Source: Azolla caroliniana | Taxonomy: Eukaryota > Plantae > Polypodiophyta | Assembly (NCBI GenBank): GCA_043228905.1 | Contig: JBHGNT010000011.1 | Span: forward strand, 2,480,001 to 2,544,000 | Direction: 5' to 3' | DNA length: 64,000 nt | Shown: positions 4,385 through 49,367 of the stretch, piece by piece | Layout: every line of letters begins with the position of its first letter | Position numbering within the stretch: the stretch's first letter is position 1 | The notes under the pieces: model-generated | The model's database searches: none | Seen by the model: only the letters and a program-made list of their open reading frames with translations | Told to the model about the DNA's origin: nothing | Program-made: the position numbers and the translations under genes

Positions 4385-4420
<36 letters not shown>

Positions 4421-4633
4421 AAAGAAAGAAGGAGACAGAGTATCTAAGTTTTGCATCAAGGTTGAGTCAAAAGAGCCCACAGAAAGAAGAAGAAGAAGGA
4501 GAAGAAGAAGATGCAGAGGCGTCAGGAAACAGAGGGAGTGATTGCCCATGTGTCTTTAATTGACTTCCAGTGCAATTGCAGAGAAAGAAAGAAAGATATA
4601 TTAATGTCTTCTAAGGCCAAATTTGGCCCATGA

Positions 4634-5130: not shown

Positions 5131-5686
5131 GAAATAGGAATGGTGAGAGTGTGTGAGTGTGTATATGTAACTTTGTAAGAGTGAGATTGAGAGAGAGAGA
5201 AATTGAGACATGGAGTAGCTGAAGCATAAGAAGTGCATTAACGTCTCTGAGGGAAGGCCTATGCGACTCGTCCCATTTGGCGTGCTGTCAAAACCAACAA
5301 GGACATTATATAGCCTATAGCGCCTTGATGTCTCCTTAAAGCTCATTTTATTATAGCCTCCTGGACAGTTGTTCGAGAAATGAAGATTAACAAGCCTTAA
5401 ACCAAGTTAAAAGTTGGAAAAGAGATAGATAAGAGATACTAGCCGAGAGAGTTTGAATGGAGCGTGCGAGGGAGAGTGCATGCGAACACTAGACCAATGC
5501 CATGATGCTAGATTATCGTGGCCAAAAATGGGCTTATAAGATTGGAAGAGATTACATCGTAAAGAGAGAAGAGAGTCTATGGATAGATAGCGAGATGTGA
5601 TTGATGGATAGTTTTATGAGATTGACCCACATTGTTGTGCACTCATTTGAGTTGCTAAAAGCTTGAGATAAAGAGAGAGAATGTGT

Positions 5687-5722
<36 letters not shown>

Positions 5723-8538: not shown

Positions 8539-8574
<36 letters not shown>

Positions 8575-11500
8575 TGTGTATGTATATATATGTATTGCTA
8601 ATAGGGCATAGAAATGATTGTTTCATTCTTCTAATACTGATCGTACAATCATCATGTACTATATAAAGATGATTGAGTTAGTGCAATAAAGTGGTTCACA
8701 TCAACAATCAAATTTGCAATCTTCAACACTGATTGGACCAATTAAAGCCCACAATTCATAGGTTATGCAAAGCGAGCTTAAAAAGATCTCAGATAGTTCT
8801 AACACTAAGTTGTTTCCAACCCAAGGTAGGGGACCTACCTAGAAAAGAGGAACCCAGAGTTTGGAAAGGGGATCTCTACCCCCTTTAGTGGGTCGAAACT
8901 TGTACATAGCCATGACAAAGGAATTGTCCCCCTAGGGCAAGGAAATTAGTCCCCCCTAGCAATTACTGGTGTAGACTTTTGAAGGATGAGTACAGAACCC
9001 TTGATAAAAAGGAATGAGTTGGCATCAAATTGCATAGTTTGTGTGAAGATTACTATAGCTTGATTAGGTATATGACTTAAACATGATGTAAAATCTATAC
9101 CACAAAAAACACCTTAATGCTTGATAACCATTATATTGATATATTGACTCTATCATGAACTGTTATAGTTAATACCAATGCATTCACGAGATTATAAACT
9201 TTGTAATGTTGATGCCATTCTATGGAGATTAAGATTGCTATATTGCACATGGGCTTAACGAGACGTAACAATCATAAACCAATAATGTTATGTGGTTGCT
9301 AGGTGGGACCTAATTAGTATGGCTTCACTTGAGTAATGTGCAACATATTCTGAGGGAATTAGCATAGTTGTCTCCTTTGCCTTAAAGATCATCGTATCAA
9401 TTGTGCCCTCCTATATGAGTTAGGTGAGCTTGAACATCAATTAAATGCATGTTTCCCATATGGAATCGTGAAATTGACATTAATATGATTTGAGCCATTA
9501 GAATGACTTAAGTATGGACATAATAAAAGAATATAGTTCTTAATTAGGTTCTCTTCATGTCAAAAGTAACACATGAGATCCTAGGACAAAGGCACCAATA
9601 CCAACATTATGATAACATAGTATAAAGTCACACATCTACCCCCAAGCCGTATGGAGTGCGAATTCGGGAACCAATAAATTGGCAAGTGCACATATGTGCT
9701 TGGAGAAAGGAAGCGCAATGATTAGCATGTTCTTTGAGCTCTTGTCCCGACTCCTCGCACTTCCTTTTCATAATGTGATTTTTGTCTTACCAAGAATCGA
9801 TCATAAGCATGTGTCATAACCCAACTCCACATGTTAATTAATTGAAAGCACATGTATTGGAAAGATAAAGGATAACTTGACCCCACAAGTTACAACTAGA
9901 TTTAACAACGACAATTGTGGTAATGCCACATCATCAATAGCATCTCAAACCTCCAGTGATATCTTTACCAATGATTGAAATTTGTGTCCTTGATTTTCTT
10001 GTTGCAAATATAAAGTAACCCTAATATCTATATTGCATGTCTATCATGCACATACAATTAGCATATCCATGATTACTAACAAAGCATATAATTGATCGAT
10101 GCTAATGTGGGCCCGATTTACATTTTCACCAATACAATTAAGGTCTAGAAAAAGTTAGATCATCATGCTTGTTTTATACACTCTCTTCAACAAACACATC
10201 CTTCAAAAGAATGGGAACTAGGGAACATGATACATCAATCAAGGTTTTGTGATCACAATCACACACACAATTTGTTGACATGGTTAAATGAGAAAATGTT
10301 GTCATCCAATGGGGTTATAGTTATAACTTATAAGTGACATGGGTAAAAAAATGTGCCTCATGTGATATACATTCCGAAGAAAGGGACCTAGCTAGGTAGG
10401 CGGTTTTAATACATATACATAACTTTTTGGGATAAACTTGCTAAGACTCTTTAACTAGCTAAAAGAACAAATACGCATGTCCTTCGGTTTAAACTTGAGG
10501 GAGAGAAAGTGAGATGCTCAACCTCTTTATCTAAAGGAAAAGTAGTTTAGCCATGTAACAATATTAATTGAATGCCAAACAGTAAATTGTTGTTATGTGG
10601 GGCATTGATGGGCCATTCTGGCGACTAAATTGGAGGTCACCTTACTTTCAAAGGCTAAAAAAGTACTTAGTGCATTCGAGTAAATGGTTGTTGACCAAAG
10701 TGTAAAAAGGATTCTTGAGTTGTACTTCCAATTGTATTTGCGTCATCTTATCGTATTGGAATTAAGATTAGAGATTTATTGTTTGTGATGGTTGAAATTT
10801 TTTATTCTATTTATTCTTAATGTTTTCAGGCTTGTGAGGTTCATGTGCGAAAAGTGTTTGTTCAAGGCTAATGAATTATAGAGTTAGTAAGAATGTCTCA
10901 AACTCTTTCTTGTGAATTCATTTGAAATGTCGCCCATGCATTCATCATTCAACTTCATTCAACCTTGTGGTTGATTATTTTGATCAACACTATTGCAATT
11001 TCTCCGATCGATAACTTTATATTGAAAAGTATTCACTCATTGGTAAGTTTTTGTACAAAAAACATTTTCTTTTTACATTTTTTATTGTTCATAGATAATT
11101 GTGCTCACAAGTTCTTTGATTATAAAGTTTTCGTTAATAATACAATGATTCAAAGAAAACAAAAACCCTCGATATGTATATGAATGAAACTTCACATTTA
11201 ATTTGGCTTTCACATGTGCTACTTAATATATTGTTGCATTTGTGTTAAAAAACTATTGATTGAGATGCTTGATAGGATGGTTTTTAAAGACACTTGCCCG
11301 CTATTAGGTAATAACATAATACATTTCGCCATTATATTGTGAGACTAATTCGTGGGTTCAACCACATGATTGATCCCACACATTCCGTGTAAAATTATAT
11401 AATGGGCCATGAGTTTGCTCCCATCACAAATGTTATGAACACTATCCATAACCTATTGTTTGGCTCCATATCTTGATATCTAAAGGATATGCCACCCAAT

Positions 11501-19065: not shown

Positions 19066-19074
19066 GCAAGCAAC

Positions 19075-19830
19075 ATGGCAGCACCTGATGATATGGCACC
19101 TGATGCAACACACAGGGACTTCCCGACTTGGGAACAAGAGGCAAGCAAAGTTATGTACAACGTCGCGTCCAATGTCGGCGATCAGCTGTTGAGCCATATC
19201 CAGGACGCCAAGACACCGAAGGAAGCTTGGGGAAACCTGAAGAAGGTCTTTGCTGCAAGCACCATGGCAACACCTAATGACACGACACCTGATGCGACAC
19301 ACAAGGACTTCCCAACTTGGGAACAAGCGGCAAGCAAAGTTATGTACTGCGTCGCGTCTAGTGTCGACGATCAACTGCTGAGCCATATCCGGGATGCCAA
19401 GACACCGAAGGAAGCTTAGGGAAACCTGAAGAAGGTCTTTGCTGCAAGCACCATGGCAACACCTAATGACATGACACCTGATGCGGCACACAAGGTCTTC
19501 CCAACTTGGGAACAAGCGGCAAGCAAAGTTATGTACTGCGTCGCGTCTAGTGTCGGCGATCAACTGCTGAGCCATATCCGGGACGCCAAGACACCGAAGG
19601 AAGCTTGGGGAAACCTGAAGGTCTTTGCTGCAAGCACCATGGCAACACCTAATGACACGGCACCTGATGCGGCACACAAGGACTTCCCAACTTGGGAACA
19701 AGCGGCAAAGCAAAGTTATGTACTGCGTCGCGTCTAGTGTCGGCGATCAGCTGTTGAGCCATATCCGGGACGCCAAGACACCAAAGGAAGCTTGGGGAAA
19801 CTTGAAGAAGGTCTTTGCTGCAAGCACCAC
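19075..19830 (+). repeat. 189-bp tandem repeat of a gag segment (4 copies here plus a partial first copy before the hAT insertion)
   Basis: 63-codon unit MATPND..PDATHKDFPTWEQAASKVMYCVASSVGDQLLSHIRDAKTPKEAWGNLKKVFAAST starts at 19075, 19264, 19453 and 19639. Confidence 0.9.
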
Positions 19831-20639
19831 GGCTCGGAAGCTGCAACTCCGACAAGAGTTGAGCAATGTTCGACAGAAGGACATGTCGGTGGCCAACTAT
19901 ACAACCCCCCGGATCAAAGACATCTGCGACTCATTTGCCTCTATCAACGTAACCGCTGAGGAAGATGAGATGGTGCAGGTTTGTCTTGGGGGCCTGACGT
20001 CAAAGTTCGGAGTATTTGGGACGGCGGTCTGTACAAGGGAGAATACACCCTCGTTTTTTGACTTACAGTCAATGCTCTTGGTAGAGGAGAACCACCTGGG
20101 TGCATCGATGAGCACACACACCGACAATAGGATGCTGTACACAGAGGCGGATCGGCAAGTGGTGGAAGCGGCTGACAAGAGCAGAATTGGAGGCACAAAG
20201 ATGGTGCTGACAGCAATTCCGGACCCTCCAGAAATAGGGGGAGTCAAAGCGGCGCCAGAAGTCTACAACGGAAACTGTCAGAACAAAGCAAGTGATTGAA
20301 TGATTGAAGGAAGGTATAAGAGAATAGAGGAACAGAGGAGAATGGATTGATAAGAGAAGAGTGGATTTATTAGAATAGAATGAGTACAAGGATGAGTCGG
20401 ATACAAGGTAGGCTTGGAGCTAAAGACTGGTGTTGATTCAAACTGATTTGATATGATCTATTTGTCTCTATTTATAGGTTTCTATAGAATAGCTTAGAGA
20501 TTTCTAGAATGTTCTAGAATGTTCTGGACCTAGAATATTCTAGGATGTTCTAGAAGATTTCTAGAATGTTCTAGAAAGTTCTAGAAGTTTCTCTGATACA
20601 ATAATCACTATGAAAAGTAACCTTATCATTTTACATCTT

Positions 20640-20712
20640 GATAGGTTACCTTAATGGTTAGGCTTTGAATTTTGTAATACGAAGTCCTGGGTTCAAGTCT
20701 AGGTGAAGCTCA
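20640..20712 (+). promoter_or_regulatory. tRNA-like Pol III A/B-box cassette in the chromovirus LTR (antisense to the element); second copy at about 34959-35017
   Basis: A-box-like TACCTTAATGG 20647-20657 and B-box-like GGTTCAAGTCT 20690-20700, 32 nt apart. Stem CCTGG/CTAGG surrounds GTTCAAGT. Confidence 0.55.
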
Positions 20713-20859
20713 ATGTTCACGGATTCATGACACTATCCCTCCTCTTAAAACAACGAGTGGAAGGAGTTGTTAACAATGCATGGATGGGTTTGTTGGGATA
20801 ATGACGATGGAAATCGTCAATAAGGGTTGAGCATTAAAAACATTATCGATAGGTGTTCC

Positions 20860-23390
20860 CATGTGCGATCGCTCGGGGTATACCCTAGCCAATCAACTAG
20901 ATAATACAACTTTACTGCACACAATCTTAGAATCAAGAATGGAGGCTACCTCGTACTCTGGGCCATTAGCAAGTTGGAGAGGAGGTGGCGGCGACAACAC
21001 GACACGATTGGGATTCGAGCTGGTGTGGCAAGGTTCCAAAAGAGAGTTGTGAAAGAATGGATGAAGCCACAACTTTGTAGGAAGATCAAGACGGAATGTT
21101 GCATCATTAATGACCGTTCCGTGATGACAAAAGGACCCAAGCATTTATAATCTAGATTATCACATGGTCGAGTAGTCTTTATGTGACGGCGTAACAACCA
21201 TATCCGATCACAAACCTTGAATGGAGACGAAAGACGATGTCGATCTGCGTGGGCCTTATGTTGGGTTTGAGCTTTCTGAAGATGTGAAGACAACTCAGAC
21301 TGGAGGTGTTGCAGTCGGTGGAGGTGCTGCTCTGCACTAGGGTTTGGTGAGATCATTGGAATGTCCAAGAGACACCATTGAGGATGGTTGCCAGTATAGA
21401 CATAGAAAGGTGTGACCTTGGTAGAAGAGTGTATGGTGTTATTGTACGCAAACTCTGCAAGATGCAATATATGACTGGGCCAATCATCTTGTTCATAACT
21501 AATGAAATATTGAAGATACTGCTCAAGTGTTGGATTTGTGCGCTCTATTTGGCCATTAGTTTCGGGATGATATGCTGAAGAGGGTTTGCAAGAGATTCGG
21601 AACCCGTTACATAGGTGCTTCCAAAAGTGAAAGATAAATTGCGAACCACGATCACTAATTATGTCGTTTGGAAGACCATGATGGCGAAATACTTCACACA
21701 TAATGATATCTGTTGTTTCTTGACTAGTGATTCTCTTTACGCAGGGCAAAAAATGTGCCAGCTTGGTAAATCGATCCACTACGGTTAAAATAGCATCAAA
21801 ACCCTGTGAAGGTGGCAGATATGTAATGAAATCCATAGAAATTGATTGCCATAGGATGATGCTTAGGCATTTTGGCTCGACAACATGTGTCACATGTGCG
21901 AACATAATCTTCAAAACATTGTTGTAAATGAGGCCACCAAAATGATCGCTTCACTAGCTCCATGGTCTTGGCAATACCAAAGTGTCCGACCATACGTGCA
22001 TCATGATAATGCTCCAACACTCGAAGGCATGGTGATCCATCAGGGACATAAGGGAGGTTCTTGTAGAAAAGTAAGTTATCTTGCCATGTGAACTCCTTAT
22101 AGTGTCGAGATGTCCCTGGAAATGCATGATTTGGACCAAGGTGGGTGAAGACATCCTTAGCAAAATCATCAGAGTGAAGTTGTTGTCGAATACCATCAAG
22201 AAGACTTGAATCCAGTGGCGTGGCACAAAGCGTGGTTGCTTGTAGTTTTGCTGGACCAAGGAGAACTTGCTTTTGATTGTCGAAAGCTGGATCTCCAGGG
22301 CGAAGTGCCAAATATGAGCGTCAAGATAGAGCATCTACTTGCCCTTGTTGTTTCCTTGGGCGGAAAATGATCTTGAAATCAAAACGAGTTAATGCGCCCA
22401 CCGAGCTTGTCGCCTATTTAGCACTCGAGCCATCTGAAAATATGTAAGATTTTTGTGGTCACTATAAATGATGATTTGATGAGGCAAACCTTCCAAGAAA
22501 TGTGGCCATTGCGCAAAAGAGTCGACCAAGCTAGTAACTCTTTGTCATGCACCTCATAGTTGATCCCGCAACATTAAATTTTCTTGAGTGAAACGCGACT
22601 GGATGCAACTGCCCATCTTCACCTGGCTGTGATAGGATGCTCCCCAATGCAAAGTTGGATGCATCTGCCTCAATGGTAAATGGCTTTTCTGGATCAACAT
22701 GAGCTAAGACAAGAGCTGATGTGAATGCCTCTTTCAACTGAGTAAAGACTTTGTCTGCTTCAGGAGTCCAAACAAATGCTTGATTTTTCTTGGTGAGTTG
22801 AGTGAGCGGCAATACAATCTTCAAATAATTCCATATGAATTTGTGGTAGAAGTTGGCAAATCCAAGGAAACACTGGACATCATGGACAGAACTTGGAGTA
22901 TGCCATTCCAATATTGTTTGAATTTTCCCTGGATCCATGAAGATACCTTTGGATGAAATGGTATAACCCAAGAACTGAACTTCTTTGCAATCAAAACTAC
23001 ACTTCTCCAGTTTGGCATAAAGACCATACTCTCTTAAGCGTTGCAGTACCTTCCACACATGTATATCATACTCCGCATGTGTTCGAGAGTAAATCAATAG
23101 ATCAACTAAATAGATGATGAGAAAGATATCAGGAAAATCTCGGAAAATGTCATTTGCCATATGTTGAAACACGGCGGGAGCATTTGTGAGCCCAAAAGAC
23201 ATTATTGTATACTCGAAATGGCCATACCGAGTGCGAAATGCAGTCTTCCACTCATCTCCCGGTTGAATACAGACAAGATTAGATGCACCCCTTAGATGAA
23301 TCTTGGTAAAATGCTTTGCCCCACCAATGCGCTCTAAAAGACTAGAAATTAAAGGTAGAGCATACCTATTTCTTATTGTGACTTTATTTA
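20860..23390 (-). pseudogene. Chromovirus pol remnant (RT-RNaseH-IN-chromodomain), frameshifted
   Basis: Motifs MSFGLTNAPAVFQ, YLVD (decayed YLDD), EADASNFALG, WQSISMDFI, SAYHPETNGQIER, GPF, EYEVASILDS. Confidence 0.9.
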
Positions 23391-25080
23391 TGTTGGGAAA
23401 TCGGTCCCTCCAAATGGGATCTGGTTATGAATGAAGAGAACCCAGTGAGAACCGAAAGAGAAGACATATTTGTAAATATGTTATGAGTAAGCCTATTGAG
23501 GCTATATTTGTAAATATCCCTAAGTTCATATAAGTATATATATGACTTAGGGCAATCACTTAACGTGTTGTTGTCATATTGTTGTAACTGTTGTAAAGAG
23601 AGTGAGTGAGTGTGAGATATAGAGAAATACTCTATTGTAACCGCCGATTGGTGTAGATATAGAGCTCGAGGTCGTTGCCTCCGAGGCTTTGAGTGTACCT
23701 TTCTCATATAGTGATAGTTGGAGTTTGTGGGCTCCCATGGTTTTTTTCCCATTTAGGGTGTTCCACGTAAACATCCTGTGTATTTCCTTGTGTACTCTCC
23801 ATTTCCCATTTCTGTGTTTCATTTCAAGTGAAGTGTTCAAGACTCGGTTGTGGTCGAGCTATTCTCATCAAACTAGTATCCGAACAAACAACACAGGAAA
23901 TGGAAGAATCATTCGGCGGCATGTTCAAGCTCACCGGCTCCAACTACTTAGTGTGGAAGTCGAAGATGAGGGATATGCTGGTGGTTAAAGATCTTTGGTT
24001 GCCGGTTAAGTTCGGGGACAAGAGACCGGACAAGATCGACACCATAGTGTGGGAGGTGATGCACATGAAGACGACGACATACATCCGGTGCTTCATCGAC
24101 ATGAGCCTGTACAACAACTTCAATGAAGAGAGCAAGGTTCATGAACTCTGGGAGAAGATCGACATCATGTTCCAGAACGAGAATGCTGTTAATCGGGTTT
24201 CGGTATTCCGGAGGCTAGTGAGGCTTCGGTACCAGGATGGCTCCAATATGGCGGAGCACATGAATGCCTTCCAGGGGCTGATACACCAAGCAACCTCGTT
24301 GGAAGTCCTCTTGCCGATGAGGTACTCGCATTACTCTTGCTCGGTTCCCTCCTGGATAGTTCGGAGACGCTAGTTGTCACGTTGGGCAACGCCGGGCCGG
24401 AAGGAAAACAGTTGTCCCTAGCAAGGGTAAAATCAAGCTTGCTAGATGAAGAAGCTCGCCGGTGTCGTGCCTTTCGGCTCCGGATCGTTGCGTAAGTCGG
24501 GTGGGAACCGCCGAGGTTTTGGACTAGGAGAAAGAAGAATATGAGATGAGGCTAGTAATGGATAGATTATTAGAAAGAGAGATAGAAATTTCGTGAATCC
24601 CACGAGTGTATTGTAATCGATTAATCAATATTTAGATAAGAATATGTATTTAGATTGAAAGAAAGATATAAGAAACTTGTGAATCCCACAAGTATAGATT
24701 ATATTATTTTCGTGAATCCCACGATTATATTAATCGGTTGGTGTTTTCGGAAATATATCCAATTTCCAAATATTTCACACACCTATTACATTGTGCTCCC
24801 CATCCTTATGTAGTGATGGGAGAGACTAAGCATAGCTACATGCTTTTTTTTTCTAATATGTTCATGCACACTAAATGTGCATGTAATGCTTTTCTAATCC
24901 TTGCTTTTATTTGCTAAATATAGTGCTCATGCACGCTAGATGTGCATGAGTCACTTTTTAGTTGCTTGCGTTTTTCTATAAAATATTCACGCACTCTAAA
25001 AATACATGATTTACCTTTTTAATAAAGGTAGGCGCAAATAAAGCACTTATAGTTATTAAATCTATTTGTAGAACACTAAA

Positions 25081-25152
25081 GATAAGGTAGCATAATGGTA
25101 AAGTTGAGGTTTGGCTACGTGGAGGTACAAGGTTTGAATCTTGCCCTATGCA
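25081..25152 (+). promoter_or_regulatory. tRNA-like Pol III A/B-box cassette in the 3' LTR of the gag-only element (B-box C>T mutated)
   Basis: A-box TAGCATAATGG 25088-25098; B-box GGTTTGAATCT 25131-25141. Confidence 0.55.
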
Positions 25153-25206
25153 CGTGATAAATATCTTGATTTTCTTATTTTATTTATTTATATGTAATTA
25201 AATCGG

Positions 25207-27231
25207 TTATATTATTTTTACTTTTTCACGTAGTGTACGAAATACACTACGACACTCGCCCCCTCCGAACCCGCACATCCTCCGGTATGTGCCGAAGTTG
25301 CCGATACTCGTTGTCTCCCCTTCATCCTCCGTTTGTCCCGCTATGTCAACTTTGTCTCTCCATTTTGAATAGACCCATTCTTTCCACGCGAACCATTGTC
25401 GCCATCCGATCCACCATATTCTTTGTTCTCTCTCGTCATATTCTTGGCCCTTGTCATTCGTGGTAGTGTCTTTTACTGGCCTCTTTCTTGTCTTCATCAA
25501 CCTTGACTTTTTTCCGGATCGCTCTCGTCCGATCAACTTTCGGTTTGATCGGCTTCCGATCGGATTCGTATTCGGCCGAATCGGAATCGGTTGTTCAGTT
25601 TTGATTGAGTCAGTCTCCTTCCGGCCCGGTTTCGATCTATCGGTTTCAGTTTCGGTTGGCTTTCTTTTCCTCGTTTTCACCAGCCTCGACCGGTCCAACC
25701 TCCGGTTGAGTCGGATTAGCTTCTTTTCGGATCGGTCTCGTCCGATCGGCTTTCGGCTAGGTCGGCTTCCATCCATATTTGCGTTCGACCAAGTCCGACT
25801 CGGTCGATCGGTTTTGACCGAGTTGACCCCTTTTCGGGTCGGCTTTCTTTCGGGTCGTCTTTCGGCCGAATCCTCATTCGCCCGGTTCGGCTTTCGTTTG
25901 TGTCGTCTTTCGGCCGAATCCTCTTTTACCCGGTTCGGCTTTCTTTCGGATCGGAATCCCGTCCAGATCACCTTCCATCCTAATTGGCTTCCGACTTTAC
26001 CTTTCTTGCCGCCACCTCCCGTCTCTCCGGTCTCACGTTGCTTCTCAAACACAACTGCCGAAGTCTCTAGGATTAGTGGGTAGGAATCCTCGGTATTATC
26101 ATCCTCTGTCATTTCAACCATAGCCTCCTTCTCGGCTATCTCTCCGTCGTATGAATCGGCTTCGACCTTTGTTTTCTCTCCACCACCTTCCGTCTCTTCG
26201 GTCTCACGTTGCCTTTCGAACGCAACCGCCGGAGTCTCTGGAATCAGCGGTGGAGAAATCTCGATATGGCCATCCGCCATTGATTCGTCCATAGCCACCT
26301 TCGATTCGATGTCATCTTTCTTGGTGACCTCCTCAATCAAGTCCTCCTTGCTCTCTTTCACTGCATCAATTATGGAAACATCAATTATGCTTACCCCTTT
26401 TTCACCTGATGTTTCGGACACTTGTATTCCGAAATCTTCTTCTACACTTGGGTTATCGGCCTTATCCTTCGCCGTCGTTCTTTCGCAAGACAAGAGGGTA
26501 GCTTGTTTTACACCCTCTTCCGTCGCACCATCATGTTGTATTTCGGCCTTCATATCGGCTCCATCGTTTGTCTTCAATCGACCATCCTTCATTGGCCATG
26601 TCGTTGACAAGATTCTCATCTTCCTCTCATCATGTCTCCGGCATACCCTTTGGACTTCGGCCCAATCTTCGGTAAGACCATTCGTACCTTCATCGTCTTC
26701 GAGTTCGATCCCGATGTCCATCCTTTCTTTTCGATCGATCGATTTTACGAACATTAGGACTTTATCCTCTCCCACCAATCGTTGTTCCCACTCCGAGAGT
26801 TGAGCAAGACGATGCTCGAACTCTAGGAATGCTTGTGTTGCACTTCGGTGGGTCTTCTCCGATGCCACCCATTCGTCAAACTCGCGTCGATCTCGTCCTT
26901 TCGATCTCTTGTAGTCATATGCCTCTCGTAAAGCTTCTTCAAAGGACCCCCATGTTGGATTTTGTTGCCGTATCTTGTAGATTCTTTCTTGTAACTCATC
27001 CGTGGCTACCCGACTGAAGGATATCACTTGCAATCCTTCCGGTATCCCACATCGTATCATCTCCGCCTTGTAGTCACGTAGATAGCATGACACATCGTTT
27101 CCGTTGAATTGTCCATTTCGTTGTACGAGCCGCTTTACTGCTCCCGTGATCTCCGACATCACTCGTTGTTCTTGTAGCATCCGCTCGAACATCATCATCA
27201 TCATGTTCATCGCCTCTTGTTGATTCTCCAT
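25207..27231 (-). CDS. Gag-like protein (674 aa from the first ATG): capsid-like N-terminus, acidic region, Arg/Lys-rich region, Trp-rich segment
   Basis: Uninterrupted ORF. Its N-terminus aligns by eye to Gag of element F (GQFNGNDVSCYLRDYKAEM ~ GRFDGKDATKYLAYYGAEM; VLMFVKSIDRKER ~ VLLFVKSVDERDR; GLTEDWAEV ~ GLTTDWAAV). The stop lies within the 3' LTR. Confidence 0.8.
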   Translation of the reverse strand: MENQQEAMNMMMMMFERMLQEQRVMSEITGAVKRLVQRNGQFNGNDVSCYLRDYKAEMIRCGIPEGLQVISFSRVATDELQERIYKIRQQNPTWGSFEEALREAYDYKRSKGRDRREFDEWVASEKTHRSATQAFLEFEHRLAQLSEWEQRLVGEDKVLMFVKSIDRKERMDIGIELEDDEGTNGLTEDWAEVQRVCRRHDERKMRILSTTWPMKDGRLKTNDGADMKAEIQHDGATEEGVKQATLLSCERTTAKDKADNPSVEEDFGIQVSETSGEKGVSIIDVSIIDAVKESKEDLIEEVTKKDDIESKVAMDESMADGHIEISPPLIPETPAVAFERQRETEETEGGGEKTKVEADSYDGEIAEKEAMVEMTEDDNTEDSYPLILETSAVVFEKQRETGETGGGGKKGKVGSQLGWKVIWTGFRSERKPNRVKEDSAERRHKRKPNRANEDSAERRPERKPTRKGVNSVKTDRPSRTWSNANMDGSRPSRKPIGRDRSEKKLIRLNRRLDRSRLVKTRKRKPTETETDRSKPGRKETDSIKTEQPIPIRPNTNPIGSRSNRKLIGRERSGKKSRLMKTRKRPVKDTTTNDKGQEYDEREQRIWWIGWRQWFAWKEWVYSKWRDKVDIAGQTEDEGETTSIGNFGTYRRMCGFGGGECRSVFRTLREKVKII

Positions 27232-27887
27232 CTCCTTGCCACCCGCCTTCACGTCGGGTTCACCAACTGTGTCGTGCCTTTCGGCTCCGGATCGTTGCGT
27301 AAGTCGGGTGGGAACTGCCGAGGTTTTGGACTAGGAGAAAGAAGAATATGAGATGAGGCTAGTAATGGATAGATTATTAGAAAGAGAGATAGAAATTTCG
27401 TGAATCCCACGAGTGTATTGTAATCGATTAATCAATATTTAGATAAGAATATGTATTTAGATTGAAAGAAAGATATAAGAAACTTGTGAATCCCACAAGT
27501 ATAGATTATATTATTTTCGTGAATCCCACGATTATATTAATCGGTTGGTGTTTTCGGAAATATATCCAATTTCCAAATATTTCACACACCTATTACATTG
27601 TGCTCCCCATCCTTATGTAGTGATGGGAGAGACTAAGCATAGCTACATGCTTTTTTTTTCTAATATGTTCATGCACACTAAATGTGCATGTAATGCTTTT
27701 CTAATCCTTGCTTTTATTTGCTAAATATAGTGCTCATGCACGCTAGATGTGCATGAGTCACTTTTTAGTTGCTTGCGTTTTTCTATAAAATATTCACGCA
27801 CTCTAAAAATACATGATTTACCTTTTTAATAAAGGTAGGCGCAAATAAAGCACTTATAGTTATTAAATCTATTTGTAGAACACTAAA

Positions 27888-27960
27888 GATAAGGTAGCAT
27901 AATGGTAAAGTTGAGGTTTGGCTACGTGGAGGTACAAGGTTCGAATCTTGCCCTATGCAC
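27888..27960 (+). promoter_or_regulatory. tRNA-like Pol III A/B-box cassette in the 5' LTR of the gag-only element
   Basis: A-box TAGCATAATGG 27895-27905 fits TRGCNNARYGG. B-box GGTTCGAATCT 27938-27948. Spacing is 32 nt, and a T-run lies about 20 nt downstream. Confidence 0.65.
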
Positions 27961-29787
27961 GTGATAAATATCTTGATTTTCTTATTTTATTTATTTATAT
28001 GTAATTAAATCGGTTATATTATTTTTACTTTTTCACGTAGTGTACGAAATACACTACGACACCGGAACTGATCCAAAGGCCTTGATCATGGAAGATGAAC
28101 ACAACCGGGGAAGAGGCTTGTATCGGAGTCCCCAAAACCAGGACAAGTCGGGGATGAGGTCGAAGTCAAGGGGGAGGCCTACTTGCTTCTATTGTGGAAA
28201 ACCAAGGCACTTCCAAAAGAACTGTCGGCATTTCCAGAAAGAGAAAGGAACTGACAATGCCGATTCGAAGAAGGGCTTGGACCGAACTGGTTCGGACCAG
28301 AAAGGGTTGGATCGGAAGGGAACGCCGGCGACCACGACAAGTGAAGAAGAACTGATGCTCATCACCGAGGAGAATGAGTTAAACCTTGTCGGCGATGAGA
28401 CAATGTGAGTTGTCGATTCCAGAGCGTCGTTTCACCTGACATCGGAACGGAAATGCTTCTCATCCTACACAACCGATGATAATGGTTGTGTCCGGATGGG
28501 GAATGAAGGTACATGCCGAATTGTCAGCATAGGAGATGTGTTGTTGATGACATCAACTGGATGCAAGTTGCTGTTGAAGGATGTCCGACACGTTCTGGAG
28601 GTTTGATTGAACCTGATATCAGCTGGTCGGCTAGATGATGAAGGCAGAACGAAGTCATGAAGTTCAACAAAGGGAGCCTAATAGTAGCTCGATCCCAGAA
28701 GGTCAACACACTGTACCTGATGCATGCCCGGATATGCCGGGAAGAAGTGAACATAGCATCCGACATTGCCCGTGAGTTGTGGCACAAAAGATTGTGTCAC
28801 ATGAGTGAGAAGGGGATGCAGAGGCTTGCTGAAGACAATCTCATTCCGGTGAAGGACGTGCAACTTGAGAAGTGCACCGATTGCTTGGCCGACAAGCAAA
28901 ACCGAACCTCCTTTTGGTCAAGACCACCGATGAGACGGAATGCACCACTTGAGCTGGTGCATACCGATGTGTGTCAAGTGGACACAAAGTCACATGAGGG
29001 ATCGCAGTACTTTGTGACGTTCATAGATGACCACAGTCAGAAGCTGTGGGTCTCACCACTGAAGACAAAGGATCAAGTGTTATCTATCTTCAAGGATCTC
29101 CACGCGAGAGTGGAAAGAGAAACCGGTTGGAAGCTGAAGGCGGTTCGAGCAAATAACAGAGGAGAATACTGGGGGCAGTTTGAGGAGTATTGCCGGTTGA
29201 AGGGAATATGACTCGAATTTACCGTGCCAAAGACGTCGGAACTAAACGGGCTAGCCGAAAGGATGAACCGGACCGTGATGGAGAGAGTCCGGAGCATGCT
29301 GGCACATGCAGAGTTACCCAAGAAGTTTTGGGCTGAGGCACTGACGACGGCGACCTATGTGATAAATAGATCACCCTCAGTACTTGGGAGGAGACTCACC
29401 TCAGAAAGTATGGACCAGTAAAGATGTATCTTACTGGCATATGAAGGTGTTCAGGTGTCTCGCTTATGTGCATGTGGCAAAGGACAAGAGAGCAAAGCTG
29501 GATCCAAAGTCTCGGCCATGCATATTCCTTGGATATGGCGATGATGAGTTCGGTTACTGGGTGAAGGATCTAGTCGACAAAAAGGTGTTCTGGAGTCGGG
29601 ACATAGTCTTCATGGAAGACATGACCATTGCTGACTGGGAGTCAGAGAAGAAGGTGATGAACTCCGGATCATCCAATGAAAACCGGTTTGAGGACACAAG
29701 GACCTACCCGGTTGAAAAGCGGATGTTAGCTGGTAATTGGATGACACTCGACGAACTTGCCGGATATGGACAGGAGACCGAACTGAC

Positions 29788-29848
29788 CGAAGAAGAAGAA
29801 GAAGAAAAAGAAGAAGAAGAAGAAGAAGAAGAAGAAGAAGAAGAAGAC
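29788..29848 (+). repeat. (GAA)n expansion encoding poly-Glu in the B1 IN-RT linker
   Basis: About 19 GAA units, versus EEEVEE in the homologous B2 region. Confidence 0.9.
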
Positions 29849-31386
29849 ACTGGAACCGGTCAAGACCCCGAATCGGATGAGGATGAAGAACAAATAGAGG
29901 AACTGGCAGTCAGAAACCAAGGACGAAGATACCCTCTTCGAGAGAGAAGAGCCCCTCGGAGATTTCCGGATGTAGAGCATGTGTTGCTAACCGATGAGGG
30001 GGAGCCAGAAAGCTTCGAAGAAGCAAAGAAAAACACCCACAACCGCAAGTGGTTGAGTGCCATTCAGAACGAGATGGATTCCTTGCATGAGAACCACATG
30101 TATGAACTGATGGAGTTGCCAAAAGGGAAGAGAGCACTCTGGAACAAGTGGGTGTACAAGATGAAACCGGGAGATGCCGGAAATCCACCAAGGTATAAGG
30201 CCCGAATCGTGGTGAAGGGCTTACAACAGAAGAAAGGAGTGGATTTCGATGAGATCTTTGTCCCGATAGTAAAGATGACATCCATTCGGACGGTATTGGG
30301 CATAGCGGCAAGCATGGACCTCGAGGTAGAGCAACTGGACGTTAAGATGACATTCCTCCATTGTGACCTCGAAGAGGAGATCTACATGTATCAACCGGAA
30401 GGATTTGAGAAGAAAGCGAAGGAGCACTTGGTGTGCTGGCTGAAGAAGAGTCTATACGGACTGAAGCAAGCTTCCCGACAATGGTACCAGAAGCTCGACT
30501 CCTTCATGACCGACCAAGGGTACCACAAAACACAAGCCGATCACTGCGTGTTTGTGAAGAAATTTGACGGAGGAGATTTCCTGATACTCCTCCTATATGT
30601 GGATGATATGCTGATCGTCGGACGAGACCAAGACAAGATTCCGATGCAGAAGAAGGCCCTTAACCAGACCTTCTCAATGAAAGACTTGGGACCGGTAAGA
30701 AAAATATTGGGTATGCACATCATCCGGGACTGGTCGAAGAAGTTGTTGTGGTTGTCATAGGAGAAGTACGTGACAAAGGTGCTTCAACGGTTCAACATGT
30801 TGGAGGCGAAACTGGTCGGATCGACACTTCCGGCAAATTGCAAGCTATCCGGAAAACAAAGTCTGAGGAAAAAGGCGGAGAAGATGGATATGATGAAGAT
30901 ACCATATGCCTCTACCATCGGAAGCTTGATGTACGCGATGGTATGTACCTGGCCGGATATCAGATATGCAGTCGGAGTGGTGAGCTGGTTCATGAGCAAT
31001 CCCGGAAGAGAGCATTGGAATGCGGTCAAGTGGATACTCCGGTATTTGAAAGGCACGTCGAGTATGTGCCTCCGGTTCGGCTCCGGTAATCCCCAACTTG
31101 ATGGATTCACGGATTCGGATATGTTGGCTGATGTGGATACCAACCGGTCTACGTCCGGATATGTCATGACTTATCCAGGGGGAGCTGTTTCGTGGCAGTT
31201 GAGGCTGCAGAAGACGGTTGCGTTGTCAACCACGGAGGCAGAGTACATGGTAGCTGTAGAAATTGGCAAGGAGATAATCGGGAAGAAGGACTTCATCGGA
31301 GAGCTAGGGATCCAACAAGAGGTATACCGGCTCTATTGCGACAATCAAAGTGCCATCCACCTTGCAAAGAATGCGGCCTACCATTC

Positions 31387-31975
31387 TGACGGGAACTGCA
31401 CACTCCCTATACGCAACACTCGGCCACAACCGAGCTTAGAATCATACACAGAAAACGGGAAATAAATGCACGACACAGTGAAGAGAAGAGTACACAGGAT
31501 GTTTACGTGGAAAACCCAAACTAGGGAAAAAACCACGGCAGCCCATAGGCTGCAAACTATCACTATGTTACAGTATACAATAGTAAAGCACCGAGGCAAC
31601 AACCTCGAGCTCTCTATCTTCGCCACAGGCGGCGGTTACAACAAAGGCAACGACCTCTTCCTCTCTCTCTCTCTCTGTGTACACAGTTATGTGCTCTGAT
31701 CTCGTGCAGACAAGAATAACAACAACAACAACTACCTCAAAAAGGTTTGCCCTAAGTCATATTTATACTAATATGACTTTTCGGCTATTTACAAATATAG
31801 CCATGATGGACTCTCAGAAACATATTTACGAATATGTCTCTTCATCCGGTGAGCACTCCTCACCGGGTCTGCACCATCCGGCTCTCCGTAGCCGGGTACT
31901 CGTCATACGGTTTCGGCCGAGTATGTTCAACACTGTTCTTCTCTCTTCCCATCCGGAGGGACCTGTCTCCCAACA
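31387..31975 (-). mobile_element. Solo LTR of Copia family B (B2-like) inserted in B1 RNase H
   Basis: TG..CA ends, homology to LTR 44252-44968, TSD CATTC (31382-86 / 31976-80). Confidence 0.92.
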
Positions 31976-32442
31976 CATTCCTGGATGAAACATATCCAGG
32001 GGCGGTACCACTGGATCCAGGAGAGAGTAGAAGATCAAGAGTTCGTGTTGACGAAGATCCACACGGAGGAGAACGGGTCGGATATGCTGACCAAGGTGTT
32101 GACAACCGACAAGCTGGACGTGTGCCGAAATCGGATCGGGCTGACGAGACATCCCATGCCGGAGTGAAGGGGGAGATTGTTGGGAAATTGGTCCCTCCGG
32201 ATGGGATCCGGTTATGAATGAAGAGGACCCGATGAGAATCGCAAGAGAAGACATATTTGTAAATATTTTCTAAGTAAGCTTATTGAGGCTACATTTGTAA
32301 ATAGCCCTAAGTTCATATAAGTATATATAGGACTTAGGGCAATCCCTTAACGTGTTGTTGTCATATTGTTGTAACTATTATAAAGAGAGTGAGTGAGTGT
32401 GAGATTCCGTGCAATATTCCGTGCAATATTCTCGTCAATTTA

Positions 32443-33337
32443 ATCCTTGACAATCCACGGCCAAACGAAGTGAGCCGTCCTTTTTCTTCATAAAAAAGAT
32501 AGGAGCACCGACTGGAGACTTTGAATATCGAATAAACCCACTTGCAAGATTCTCGTCGATGTATCCTCAAAGAACCTCAAGCTCCGTTGGTGACAGATTG
32601 TAGATCAGACCCCATGGTGGCTCTTTTCCTGGCTGTAGATCAATGGGATAATCGTATGGCCGATGCTTTGGAAGTACACTAGCTTTGACATTGTCGAAGA
32701 CATCAACATATTCTTGGTACTTTTTAGGAATGTAGACCTCTGACTTCCCTTGAGTGTCACTAGAAGGTGCAACTGATATGGCAAATAAGAATAGATCTTC
32801 TTTTGCTCCTTCTTGGCATAATTGTTGTAGGGTGATGGTTGAAATCTGATGAAGAGGAACAACGTGTTTGGTAGATGGTGAATTGGTAACACTATGTCTT
32901 TCAAGAGGAGGATCCTGGGTTCGACCCTTGACTACTATGTTTCCTTTTGAAGGGCACCTAATTTCTCGTCGTTTCCAATCAATTCTTGGGTTGTGTAGCT
33001 TGAACCATGGCAAACCAAGCACTATTGGATGCTCAGGGCTACGGATTATGTTAAAGGAAACTACACATCCCAGATCACCTAAGAGTATGTGTATCGGCTC
33101 AGAATCCTCAAATATCTTTCTAGAAGCTATGGGACGTCCCTCAATCACTACTACAGAAATTGGGCAAGGAAGTTTATGCAAGGGTATTTGATGTTTTCGG
33201 GAAAAATCTCTATCCATGAAACAAGAATTGGCTTCGGTATCTAAGAGAGCTGGGACATGAAGTTGAAAACTTGGTGTCCTAACTTGTACTTGGGCAGAGA
33301 AAACTCTACTAACATGCTTGGAAGAGATGGAACCCAC
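32443..33337 (-). pseudogene. Chromovirus protease and RT N-terminus remnant
   Basis: ALLDTEANSCFMD (decayed D[S/T]GA), IVLGLPWFKLHNPRIDW, LPKHRPYDYPIDL. Confidence 0.85.
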
Positions 33338-33393
33338 ACTAGGCTATACAGATCTAGGATTGTCCAACCAAAGGGCTCCGATTTTGACCGGAC

Positions 33394-34551
33394 TTATTCG
33401 TTTGACTCCTCTTCTAATTGGCTTAGGACCTCAAACTTATTGGATAGAGTTGGATTACTAGAATCACTAGTTGGCACAGTTTCAATGATGCTAGACTCAT
33501 TTCCATTATCGTAGTTAATGTGATGTACCTGACGTCTCGGTCTGTGTGGGCAATGAATGATAATATGTCTTGGACCTCCACAATATAAGCATAGTCGATT
33601 TGCTCGACGACGTTGTTTCTCTTCATCCGATAACGGTCCTCGTCGCCGGGTCATATCAATCTCCATCGGTGTCAGGCTATCCATTGGTGTTGGGCTACGT
33701 GCTTGCCGTGGAGTTGGGACGGGGCTATATTGTTGCCTTGGAGATTGTGCCGTCAGTGATGCATAAGTTGGCTTAAATGTTGATCTTGTTTGTTGCTGTT
33801 GTCGCTCAGACCGACGCTCAGAAAGCCGATTATCACACCATATTGCTCGGCTAATAGCTTTTGTAAGGGATTTTGGATCCTTAGGGAAGGTAAGAAGTAA
33901 ATCTTTTACATCTCCACAGCGGCCTGAACGAAACTGCTCCATTAGGGCTTGTTCGTCCCAAGGAATATCACTTGCAATGAGACGAAAATTGGCTGCATAC
34001 GTTGATGCTGGTTGATCCCCTTGTCGTAGTGTGTGAATCTTGTTGATTGCCGTTCTTACACTATATGTGTCTTCGAAGCAAGCCTTAAACTCTTTGATAA
34101 ATTCTTCAAAGTTGTTAAGTAGGGGAGAATTTGCTTCTAGTAATGGAGCATACCATGACAATGTTGTGCCAGTCAATAAAGTGCCCACTAACCCGACTCG
34201 AGATGAATCCGTTGGATAATGCGTGGGATGCATCTGGATCACCAACCGCACTTGATTTATAAAACCCCGAAAATGTGCTTTGGAACCATCGAATTTAGCT
34301 GGGAGGCTGATTTTGGGTTCCTTAAGAACTCCTTGACTGTCGACTTTTAGTTGTTGTAAAGCTACTATTGCCAACTCTAATCGTTGAACCCTTTGTGTAA
34401 ACTCGTCGTGTATTTGTTGCTTCTCTACAGAAACCTTATGTAGATCTTCAAGTAGTCGTTGATTCTCTAGCTCTAGTGATGCAAACTTGCTTTTGAGATT
34501 CTCCATTTCTGCAACAAGGGCAAGGTATTCTTGTGGGTTGCTAGTAGCCAT
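33394..34551 (-). CDS. Chromovirus Gag (385 aa)
   Basis: LPAKFDGS, LRQGDQPASTYAANF, PMEID, LCLYCGGPRHIIIHC zinc knuckle. Confidence 0.88.
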   Translation of the reverse strand: MATSNPQEYLALVAEMENLKSKFASLELENQRLLEDLHKVSVEKQQIHDEFTQRVQRLELAIVALQQLKVDSQGVLKEPKISLPAKFDGSKAHFRGFINQVRLVIQMHPTHYPTDSSRVGLVGTLLTGTTLSWYAPLLEANSPLLNNFEEFIKEFKACFEDTYSVRTAINKIHTLRQGDQPASTYAANFRLIASDIPWDEQALMEQFRSGRCGDVKDLLLTFPKDPKSLTKAISRAIWCDNRLSERRSERQQQQTRSTFKPTYASLTAQSPRQQYSPVPTPRQARSPTPMDSLTPMEIDMTRRRGPLSDEEKQRRRANRLCLYCGGPRHIIIHCPHRPRRQVHHINYDNGNESSIIETVPTSDSSNPTLSNKFEVLSQLEEESNE

Positions 34552-35017
34552 GGGTACTAAGTAGTGTTTGTGAAAGAGGGTAAAGGAGAAGAAGTTCGAA
34601 TCAAATTGTCAGAACAAAGCAATAGATTCAACGATTGAAGGAAGGTATAAGAGAATAGAAGAAGAGAGGAGAATAGATTGATAAGAGAAGAGTGAGTTTA
34701 TTAGAATAGGAGTACAAGGATGAGTTGGATACAAGGTAGGCTTGGAGCTGAAGACTGGTGTTGATTCAAATTGATATGATATGATCTATTTGTCTCTATT
34801 TATAGGTTTCTATAGAATAACTTAGAGATTTCTAAAATGTTTTGGACCTAGAATATTTTAGGATGTTCCAGAAGATTTCTAGAATGTTCTAGAAAGTTCT
34901 AGAAGTTTCTTTGATACAATAATCACTATGAAAAGTAGCCTTTATCATTTCACGTCTTGATAGGTTATCTTAATGGTTAGGCTTCGAATTTCGTAATACG
35001 AAGTCTTGGGTTCAAGT

Positions 35018-35213
35018 TGTCGAATACGAGTGTATAATGGCCGTATTCACACTATCCCTTTGGACAACCCAAGTTTGGGTTATTTCTGTAAATAGCATAA
35101 AGGGCAGTTGCCCTAGGATAGTCACTATATAAAGTGACTTTGTAACCTTTAGTCGTGGTGGTTGTCATTTTGTAACTGTTGCTATTAAGAAATAAACTAT
35201 TTCTTTGTGCCTA

Positions 35214-44505: not shown

Positions 44506-47181
44506 AGGAAGAGACATATTCGTAAATATGTTTTTGAGAGCCCATCGAGGCTATATTTGTAAATAGCCGAAAAGTCATATTAGTATAAATATGACTTAGG
44601 GCAAACTTTTAAATGTTGTTGTCATTCTTCCTTGTTGGTGCAAGAAGAAGAGAGAGCGCGTAACTGTACAGAGAGAGAGAGAGAGAGAGAACGAGGTCGT
44701 TGCCTCTGTTGTAACCGCCGCCTGTGGCGAAGATCGTGAGTCCGAGGTCGTTGCCTCCGTGCACTCACTGTTTTGTACATTCATACATAGTGACAGTTTG
44801 CAGCCTGTGGGTTTCCGTGGTTTTTCCCCTAGTTTGGGGTTTTTCCACGTTAACCTCCTGTGTACCATTTCTCTTCTTTGTGTCGTGTTCTATTTACCGT
44901 TTTCTGTGTATGAAAAGAATCTCGGTTGTGGCCGAGTCTTGCGCATAAGGAACGACAAGTTCCCGTCAAGTGGTATCAGAGCGAAATCGACACAGAAAAT
45001 GGATGAATCGTTTGGCGGCATGTTCAAGCTCACCGGCTCCAACTATTCAGTGTGGAAGTCGAAGATGAGGGACATGCTCGTTGTTAAAGACCTCTGGCTG
45101 CCGGTTCAGTTCGGGGACAAGAGACCGGACAAAATCGACGCCGCGATATGGGAGGTGATGCACATGAAGACAACGGCGTACATACGGTGCTTCATCGACA
45201 TGAGCCTATACAACAACTTCAACGAAGAGAGCAAGGCTCATGAGCTCTAGGAGAAGATCGGCATAATGTTCCAAAACAAAAATGCTATCAATCAGGTGTC
45301 GGTATTCCGGAAGCTAGTAAGACTCCGGTACCAAGATGGCTCCAGCATGGTGGAGCACATGAATGCCTTCCAGGGGCTGATCCACCAGGCAACGTCATTG
45401 GAAGTACCTCTTGCCGACGAGGTACTAGTGCTACTCCTGCTCGGTTCCCTCCCAGATAGCTGGGAGACGTTGGTTGTCACTTTGGGCAACGCCAGGCCGG
45501 AGGGAAAGCGGTTATCCCTAGCAAGAGTAAAGTCGAGCTTGCTAGATGAGGAGGCGCGTCGGAAGGATAAAGATACGAGCTCCGACTCCAAAGCGCTGCT
45601 TACCGAATCGGAATGCGGAAGACATAGAAACCGTAGTCCCCAGAACTGGGAGAAGTCGGGGACACGGTCAAAGTCAAGGGGGAGGCCCACTTGCTTCTAT
45701 TGCGGCAAGCCGGTTCAACTTGCGGCAAGCCGGCCATCCGACACTGCCGGTGAGCTGTGGCACAAGAGACTGTGTCATATGAGCGAGAAGGGGATGAAGA
45801 GGCTTGCAGACGACAACCTCATTCTAGTGAAGAATGTGCACTTGGAGAAGTGCACTGATTGTCTGGCCGGTAAGCAGAACCGGACCTCCTTCCGACCAAG
45901 GCCACCGATGAGACGTAATGCACCACTGGAGCTGGTGCATACGGATGTGTGTCAAGTAGACACGAAGTCACATGCCAGAGCGCAGTACTTCGTGACGTTC
46001 ATAGATGACCACACCCGGAAGCTGTGGGCCACACCACTGAAGACGAAGGACCAGGTGCTATCCGTCTTCTAAGAGCTCCACGCGAGAGTGGAAAGAGATA
46101 CCGGCCGGAAGCTGAAAGCGGTTCGAGCAGATAACGGAGGAGAATATCGGGGGCAGTTCGAGGAGTACTGCCGCTCGAAGGGAATCCGACTCGAATTTAC
46201 CGTGCCGAAGACGCCGGAACTAAACGGACTGGCCGAGTGGATGAACCGGACCATAATGGAGAGGGTCCGGAGTATGCTAGCGCATGCAAAACTACCCAAG
46301 AAGTTTTGGGCTGAGGCACTGTCGACGGCGACATACGTGATAAATAGATCACCCTCAGTACCCTTGGACGGAGACACGCCACAGAGAGTGTGGACCGGTA
46401 AGGAAGTATCCTACCGGCATCTGAAGGTGTTCGGGTGTCTCGCGTTGTCGTGAAGAAAACCGCCCACAAGAGGAATCGGAGGAACAAGGCGTGGGAAACG
46501 GCTCTACACACACGCGCGCCAAGAAGTACCTAAGGACGAAGCAGGTGCATGCGAGGATCCTAGGTGGGTAGATTCGGTTGGTATGCAGTTAATGCCAAAC
46601 GGCCTCTTGACGGGATATAAAAAGGAAGAGGAAGAATAGAACGGGGGATCTCGCGCGGAGAGGACGAAGTGCTGCCGAACCGATTTCGGAGCTCCTCTCT
46701 CACTCCTGCTTTCTCTGTCTTCTGCTCCCTCGCGTACCTGTGCAGGTTTCGAGGAGGCTTGCGCTGTTCCGTGGAACGCCCCCGAGTGCGTCCTGCAGCA
46801 CCTCCGACCTGTTTTCCCTTTCTGTGCGCCGCGTCATACAGGGGTCGGCATCTGTTCGCCGCCCTGTTCGTTTTCGTTATATCTATTCCGTGCCCCACCG
46901 TGGGTTGTAATACTTTAGTCTGTTATTTTCTTGCATTCATAAGTACATATCTTTCGTTGTTGCGTCCATCTGCGTCGGCGTTTATTTGTGATCTCTGTTT
47001 GTTGGGCCGTGTCCCTGTGCAATCTTCGGTTCTCTGTAATCGGGTCTCTCTCTCTTACCTCTCTCTCTCTTGCTCTTCGGTCCAAGACCCCCGTGGTCCC
47101 TCCTCCTTTCTGCGCGCAAGGGCGTAGCAACCCCGACATCTTGGTGAACCCGACGTGAAAGAGGCGGCAGAAGAGCAGGAA

Positions 47182-49308: not shown

Positions 49309-49367
49309 AGAGGACTGCCAAGGCGTGGGGCCGCGACAGTCCGGACAACCCGGGAAAACCCCACACC
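49299..49367 (+). promoter_or_regulatory. Candidate -1 ribosomal frameshift signal (G_GAT_TTT plus H-type pseudoknot)
   Basis: Heptamer 49299-49305 abuts the ORF1 stop. 6-nt spacer, stem GGACTG/CAGTCC, and loop GTGGGG complementary to CCCCAC 49359-49364. The -1 frame is open into pol. Confidence 0.7.

Follow-up and report, generated by a model that had tools for sequence, protein, structure and literature searches.

The long terminal repeats (LTRs) belonging to a 3.6-kb Gypsy retrotransposon in the window, that is, the whole stretch of 64,000 nucleotides analyzed here, carry a tRNA remnant that has kept both internal promoter boxes and their spacing and has lost the tRNA shape. This cassette is a family trait that is present in two Gypsy lineages, one Phygy-like and the other a chromovirus, and it is oriented antisense to the element at the outer end of U3. 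Since boxes and spacing are kept and the tRNA shape is lost, the cassette is likely a landing site for the Pol III machinery and not a tRNA; our prediction from the sequence is that it is likely an accessory TFIIIC/Pol III site.

The window consists of nested plant LTR retrotransposons. The host of the cassette occupies positions 24463-28061 on the minus strand and encodes gag without pol. Its parts, all on the minus strand, are (i) a 5' LTR of 792 bp (27270-28061; TGTCG...CGACA), (ii) a 3' LTR (24463-25254) that differs from the 5' LTR at only 2 of 794 aligned bases, (iii) an 18-nt primer binding site (27248-27265), which we take to be of the tRNA-Trp type, (iv) a polypurine tract that precedes the 3' LTR (25255-25272), (v) a gag-only open frame of 707 amino acids from stop to stop (25207-27330), and (vi) a TATA-like sequence at 27612-27619 (LTR position 443) that is probably the Pol II TATA box and at whose place the relatives L015 and L022 carry TATATAAG. 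The gag frame crosses the polypurine tract and enters the 3' LTR (25207-25254); since the terminal residues of P0130 and P0131 are almost identical to those of this frame, the run-on is a family trait. The target site duplication is CCGG, 4 bp of the NCGN type (24459-24462 and 28062-28065). An autonomous Gypsy element at 46446-53562 has a GCGT target duplication, the same primer site (47141-47158), and a Gag that aligns with that of the focal element at 33%; its RT, RNase H, and integrase lie within 50175-52796, no chromodomain match was obtained for it, and the nearest named Pol matches were from Riccia (60-63%). A preference for NCGN target sites is described as a Phygy trait, and such sites together with a short, coding-filled interior fit the focal host (PMC6317226, available portion). 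The NCGN site, the non-chromovirus Gypsy domain order, and the short interior thus suggest a Phygy-like element, a placement that, like that of the Tcn1-like chromovirus below, is made by traits.

Several further features of the window were recorded. Both Phygy-like elements (24462/28062 and 46446/53562) are young, with LTRs more than 99.7% alike, and both are inserted at NCGN sites in related Copia elements, inside the chromovirus. The focal LTR contains two CATGCAC..GTGCATG palindromes (27670-27690 and 27732-27758) and several GTGGGATTCAC hairpins (27397-27531), which are candidate cis elements; the segment 27727-27757 is the deepest U3 block in the public contigs X18 and X20, and one such palindrome is kept in the related locus L005. 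A 189-bp tandem array of about 4 units at 19066-19833 is derived from Copia gag-side sequence.

In the 5' LTR, the cassette body covers 27888-27958 on the plus strand according to the alignment with Rfam RF00005. Its A-box, TAGCATAATGG, at 27895-27905 (plus strand) has no mismatch to the consensus TRGYNYARTGG, and its intact B-box, GGTTCGAATCT, lies at 27938-27948 (plus strand) after a gap of 32 nt. The pair 27895/27938 is the only one in the window without mismatches, compared with 0.025 such pairs in simulated windows, and the strict box pattern turned up in 7 of 200 simulations; these patterns were composed after the focal site had been seen. Consensus boxes at tRNA-like spacing, as reported in the first-pass annotation, are therefore borne out for the 5' LTR. 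The same annotation had placed them in both LTRs, but the second copy (25081-25151, plus strand) reads GGTTTGAATCT at the B-box as a result of a C-to-T change at 25135, one of the two LTR differences, so that the consensus B-box is present in one LTR only. Counted from the outer U3 end, the cassette occupies LTR positions 115-167, with the likely TATA box about 276-280 bp further inside, and it points away from the Pol II promoter, as had been proposed. The T run expected after the B-box was also found, in the form of two T4 runs at 27977-27980 and 27985-27988 (plus strand), about 20-30 nt past the B-box; they represent a candidate Pol III terminator, with a predicted RNA of some 85-95 nt.

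The shape of a tRNA was not recovered. The Rfam tRNA model scored 12.8 bits on 27888-27958 (gathering threshold, 29; E value, 3.5) and left the anticodon arm unaligned, ARAGORN called no tRNA at the cassette, and the cassette has neither the cloverleaf with an anticodon arm nor the 7-nt T-loop of a tRNA gene. The CAAG/CTTG stem noted earlier does exist, but it encloses an 8-nt loop in a T-arm that is one base short of the canonical length. Across the relatives, 58%, 56%, and 35% of the cells are paired in the acceptor, D, and anticodon stems, respectively, and the cloverleaf as a whole is 57% paired in 12 rows; the residual acceptor pairing once described is thus not kept, and the idea of a tRNA-mimic RNA finds no cloverleaf to build on. 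The fold of the cassette is no better than that of shuffled sequences (z-scores of -0.14 to -0.83). An Rfam scan of 10 related loci detected no cassette, and its sole match was a true tRNA-Leu gene in L021. This intact tRNA-Leu(CAA) gene (L021:73-156) is separated by about 470 bp from a Phygy-like insertion in which the cassettes are lost or broken, which is a single case.

The distribution of the cassette was examined in 31 metagenome loci (81 kb) that were chosen by Gag alignment alone, with the cassette ignored; these loci are short-read repeat contigs that stem from a few assemblies, and chimeras may be among them. This part of the Phygy-like U3 is reached by 15 of them, the other 16 ending short of it. 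Both boxes are present in 10 of the 15 (L002, L004, L005, L010, L013, L018, L020, L024, L026, and L029), whereas the cassette is damaged in three (L011, L021, and L022; in L021, both LTRs have lost it or carry it in broken form) and absent in two that belong to one family (L006 and L007). These numbers agree with the earlier view of a built-in LTR feature as opposed to a SINE present in a few copies, and no free cassette copy was found outside the LTRs of the window. Among the 31 loci, box pairs with up to 2 mismatches were antisense in 10 cases and sense in 1, and the gap measures 32 or 33 in each of the 10 antisense pairs; the simulated loci gave 0.63 pairs in all (maximum, 3), with gaps spread over 28-45. 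Two of the 10 antisense pairs, in L002 and L027, belong to second, chromovirus-looking cassettes located 11-16 nt from the LTR start, a lineage assigned by resemblance, since BLAST tied only L008 to the chromovirus LTR. In the window, the six Copia LTR stretches gave best box pairs with 3-6 mismatches, which is the chance level, and a box-like match at 32876-32927 was rejected (3 mismatches, 5.75 such matches expected, inside chromovirus coding DNA). Scans of viral contigs returned no exact cassette pattern and no match to the Gag, chromovirus RT, or Pol queries; 80 loci that matched a looser version of the boxes are presumably tRNAs of phages and were set aside.

The comparison with individual relatives indicates that the cassette is both recurrent and dispensable. 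L005 is an intact gag-pol element with uninterrupted frames for gag (702 codons) and pol (1168 codons). BLAST aligned its LTR with the focal LTR in a single block, which surrounds the B-box and measures 39 nt, and its A-box is in exact register (10/13 matches), with the following 16 nt matching at chance level (4/16). The cassette of L013 is a third, distinct sequence. There are thus at least three unrelated cassette sequences, every one antisense at the outer U3, and a FastTree phylogeny of 18 Gag rows, from which rows with fewer than 150 matched Gag residues were left out, placed the cassette-bearing LTRs in three Gag clades. With unrelated sequence, the boxes, gap, strand, and position are thus repeated in a second Phygy-like clade in addition to the chromovirus LTRs. 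No cassette is found in the fully covered LTRs of L006 and L007 (best, 4 mismatches) or in the LTRs of the autonomous element at 46446-53562 (best, 6 mismatches). L005 (597-640) and L006 (552-591) share the first 42 LTR bases and are unrelated throughout the U3/R beyond, indicating that U3 blocks were exchanged and that the LTRs are modular. In public contigs, the family occurs at high depth in four organisms, although depth does not equal copy number and these contigs are short-read assemblies of repeats; X21 yielded no contigs, which is not evidence of absence. The depth in X20 is 147,000-204,000 over 27935-27959 and 3,000-10,000 at either end and in the half with the A-box, so that the B-box block is about 20-fold deeper; in X1, 31 contigs diverge before 27927 but retain the A-box in register.

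The chromovirus spans approximately 20272-35018 and is self-primed; the site that follows its LTR pairs over 8-10 nt (12 by eye) with LTR sequence located about 30 nt past the TATA box. It has a chromodomain-like motif, which is frameshifted and was read by eye, and its RT relatives at 78-83% identity carry PF00385. Self-priming and a chromodomain are features of Tcn1 (PMC6317226, available portion), and the window chromovirus consequently appears to be Tcn1-like. The co-occurrence of the Phygy and Tcn1 types would suggest a moss-like host plant, with the nearest named Pol matches being those from Riccia given above. Cassettes with A- and B-boxes are located in its 3' LTR (about 20272-20732) at 20640-20710 (plus strand, antisense, 33 nt from the outer LTR end) and in its 5' LTR at 34959-35018 (plus strand), where the cassette is cut off at the B-box end by another LTR element. 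The box pairs 20647-20699 and 34966-35018 have the same gap, strand, and place as the focal pair, which upholds this much of the matching cassette announced in the first-pass annotation; the match does not extend to sequence, since BLAST detected no similarity of the chromovirus LTR cassette to the focal LTR, nor to the terminator, since there is no T4 run between the cassette and the LTR end. The element inserted at 35018, at the B-box end of the 5' LTR, has a Met-type primer site at about 35331, and the outer 35 nt of this 5' LTR were not found in the window. The self-priming site (34590-34606) is the complement of the T-loop/B-box word GTTCGAATC.

The position of the first T4 run and a hairpin around the B-box bear on whether the transcript itself is of importance. 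The first T4 run lies at +25 to +30 from the B-box in six Phygy-like LTRs (the focal LTR, L004, L005 with +25, L020, L024, and L029); the runs are at +7 and +27 in L026 and at +66 in L013. A 41-nt block around the B-box (27923-27963, plus strand), with an ACGT motif at either end, is identical to L005 at 38 of 39 positions and forms a hairpin with 89.9% of its cells paired in 12 rows. Together with the retention of the A-box alongside the B-box, these data would fit a Pol III RNA of about 90 nt, antisense to U3, that tunes expression or that feeds or soaks up small-RNA silencing. There is a precedent in foamy viruses, autonomous retroelements with A/B-box Pol III units and T terminators in U3, although these units make defined miRNA hairpins and have been described as dispensable in some conditions (PMC3993851, available portion); in the present case, we are dealing with a tRNA remnant whose RNA body lacks conservation. 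A function of the product is nevertheless unlikely, given that the RNA body varies among families, that the chromovirus-type cassettes have no T4 run inside the LTR, that the covariation in the hairpin is not above that of shuffles (151 of 500 shuffles reach it), and that the fold of the whole RNA does not exceed that of shuffles either.

A function in the genomic RNA was considered in two versions, namely, pairing of the U3 boxes with a host tRNA at its D- and T-loops, in the manner of Ty3, or a role of the 41-nt hairpin in packaging or strand transfer, as a signal held in common with the helper element. The Ty3 bipartite primer site is similar in that U3 sequence is complementary to the D and T arms of a tRNA, and both the antisense strand and the U3 position of the cassette correspond to it (PMC5371799, available portion). 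The parts retained are the complements of tRNA loops, and the hairpin can form on the genomic strand as well (-12.9 kcal/mol) and is the sole block in common with the autonomous L005. The U3 of HIV-1 likewise holds a stretch that resembles tRNA-Lys3. Several observations make this function quite unlikely. (i) A complete 18-nt primer site is already present in the element. (ii) The Ty3 site is specific to the primer tRNA (PMC5371799, available portion), whereas the 3' half of the focal cassette agrees with the primer end deduced from the 18-nt site at only 7 of 15 positions, with no run longer than 3, a comparison that covers the primer-end side only. (iii) A cassette is also present in the chromovirus, which is self-primed, and that cassette thus cannot serve a tRNA primer. 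(iv) The hairpin was not found in L013 or in the chromovirus types, and its covariation is at the shuffle level given above.

The boxes are more constrained than their surroundings. Non-CpG changes were counted against the focal copy in 10 related LTR segments, whose cells are not independent, and amounted to 3/68 in the B-box, 19/130 in the A-box, 64/270 in the spacer, 252/1432 in other U3 sequence, and 339/1912 in the remaining LTR. The non-CpG sites of the B-box are thus about 4 times as stable as other U3 sequence, and the Fisher tests against spacer and other U3 gave P values of 0.0001 and 0.003, respectively, again with nonindependent cells. The A-box is close to background in this count; its changes are almost all at degenerate positions, with 3 violations in 10 rows. 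No gap cells occur over 27888-27947 in 11 rows, compared with 90/638 upstream and 113/792 downstream, one row carries a 1-nt insertion, and no indel between the boxes reaches 12% in the public contigs. The conservation of the boxes, which had been suggested as a check of the initial proposal, is hence supported, although within the close family the cassette does not peak in 22-nt windows (identities of 0.75-0.83 compared with 0.70-0.97 over the rest of the LTR). The tRNA boxes could, in principle, ride along with a Pol II enhancer in which two ACGT cores that flank the B-box (27924-27927 and 27959-27962) are under constraint. ACGT is a bZIP/bHLH core, and both cores are kept in L005 and L010. 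This alternative is very improbable, as the CpGs of the cores are often lost, the pair is missing in the other cassette types, and the register of the A-box is left unexplained.

Constraint on the boxes is accompanied by rapid decay at CpG sites. Of 12 aligned rows, 6 have T in place of the B-box C, and the same change accounts for 26%, 37%, and 29% of the contig depth in X1, X18, and X20, respectively. At the palindromic B-box CpG (27942), C-to-T changes make up 26-37% of the depth and G-to-A changes are unlisted at the 12% threshold, a strand skew that could stem from transcription and that concerns few sites. Cassette CpGs were lost in 17/25 cases, compared with 31/100 elsewhere in the same LTRs (P = 0.001) or with 19/45 when the termini were excluded (P = 0.048). 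They therefore show no sign of shelter from methylation, and this mutational proxy, the only one available here, points away from the methylation dip anticipated at the B-box. The boxes thus seem to be kept in the copying lineages, and inserted copies appear to be methylated there and to decay. Faster CpG decay and three autonomous relatives without a cassette argue against an essential insulator.

The decay is also compatible with a passive relic in U3, derived from an old SINE head or a tRNA pseudogene, that has been carried and swapped among LTR families without benefit. We consider this rather unlikely. In its favor are the dispensability of the cassette in L006, L007, and the autonomous element of the window, the loss of the B-box C in a quarter to a third of the depth along with the other CpGs, and the block common to L005, which extends to bases outside the boxes, as expected of a recent exchange. 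An 8-bp direct repeat (27862 and 28004) and a T-rich tail flank the cassette in AT-rich DNA, where no SINE body region was seen; the expected level of such 8-mer repeats is similar to what is observed, according to a rough estimate and not a computed control. Passive carriage would, however, not account for an A-box that is held in register across a replaced spacer, for the stability of the non-CpG sites of the B-box, for the lack of indels between the boxes, or for the recurrence of unrelated cassette sequences in one orientation and place.

The reading that we favor, to which we assign somewhat less than an even chance, is that the boxes and the gap are kept as bound Pol III factors help the copying lineage in cis and not via the shape of an RNA. 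This in-cis promoter reading is derived from the fact that geometry and boxes are kept, that the RNA body is not, and that the terminator is kept only in Phygy-like families. TFIIIC would bind the A- and B-boxes and place TFIIIB on the inner side, Pol III would make a short outward transcript (about 90 nt in Phygy-like families), and occupancy would maintain an open boundary at a distance of about 280 bp from the Pol II TATA box, on its outer side. The cassette would be an accessory under this model, since relatives without it also transpose, and any benefit would be confined to a few young source copies, since most inserted copies lose the cassette to CpG decay. It was probably acquired in more than one capture event, with tRNA genes or SINE heads as the source, and probably moved between families via the exchange of U3 blocks. 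A more specific version can be put forward only tentatively and is doubtful at present: in a seedless plant, the Phygy-like and the Tcn1-like Gypsy lineages, which are unrelated to each other, may have repeatedly captured outward-pointing Pol III mini-genes at the LTR edge, and these may serve as a portable boundary of the tDNA type by which young copies stay transcribable in nested heterochromatin. Barriers that involve TFIIIB/TFIIIC are described for yeast, and insulators formed by tDNAs for animals, in PMC9540200, the available portion of which does not give a tDNA barrier in plants.

The closest known system is Helenus (TRIMp3), in which a tRNA-derived sequence with A- and B-boxes lies inside both LTRs (Kojima 2024, PMC10886601). 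As in the focal element, conservation in Helenus is limited to the two boxes, a working tRNA is unlikely, and a T-rich stretch often follows (PMC10886601). The suggestion that the cassette may be undescribed therefore does not hold for tRNA-derived LTR promoters as such; it holds in that the published cases are sense promoters of noncoding TRIMs. Helenus elements measure 311-1263 bp and have no coding capacity, whereas the elements analyzed here are 3.6-kb gag-coding and full gag-pol elements, and the Helenus cassette is in the sense orientation and is proposed to make genomic RNA, whereas the present one is antisense at the outer U3 (PMC10886601). In the accessible part of the Helenus supplement, we counted 212 sense and 14 antisense B-box words, with Helenus-1_SMo in the sense orientation (PMC10886601). 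The focal family thus departs from the definition of Helenus in two features, a TRIM of up to about 1 kb without coding capacity and a sense promoter. A cassette that is antisense at the outer U3 of elements with their own Pol II TATA box cannot make the template. Kojima also stated that tRNA-like parts occur in a fair number of Repbase LTRs, that only TRIMs below 1 kb were studied, and that autonomous partners are expected not to share long LTR sequence with Helenus TRIMs (PMC10886601). Cassandra and Ajax resemble the focal element in having an internal Pol III promoter in plant LTRs but, according to the available portions of the sources, differ in that this promoter is of the 5S type (A, IE, and C boxes), transcribes the element itself, and belongs to a noncoding TRIM (PMC10886601; bioRxiv 10.1101/2023.07.14.548913). 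The available portion of the Phygy and Tcn1 descriptions mentions no tRNA-like LTR cassette (PMC6317226). The cassette is new with respect to Helenus and Cassandra, since strand, position, and host element differ; in a partial search of the literature, we found no report of an antisense tRNA-type promoter in the U3 of coding or autonomous plant Gypsy elements, and prior notice is possible.

Pol III promoters in LTRs have been known as the engine of tiny noncoding elements. The cassettes described here are placed backwards in coding or autonomous elements that have a Pol II promoter and must therefore do something else or nothing. Natural controls are at hand in the relatives with and without a cassette (L005 and L006, respectively) and in the intact and C-to-T copies. 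If the cassettes are relics, thousands of tRNA-like decoys have been added to such genomes. If they are boundaries, they would provide a ready test of tDNA/TFIIIC barriers in plants and would represent a route by which retrotransposons resist silencing.
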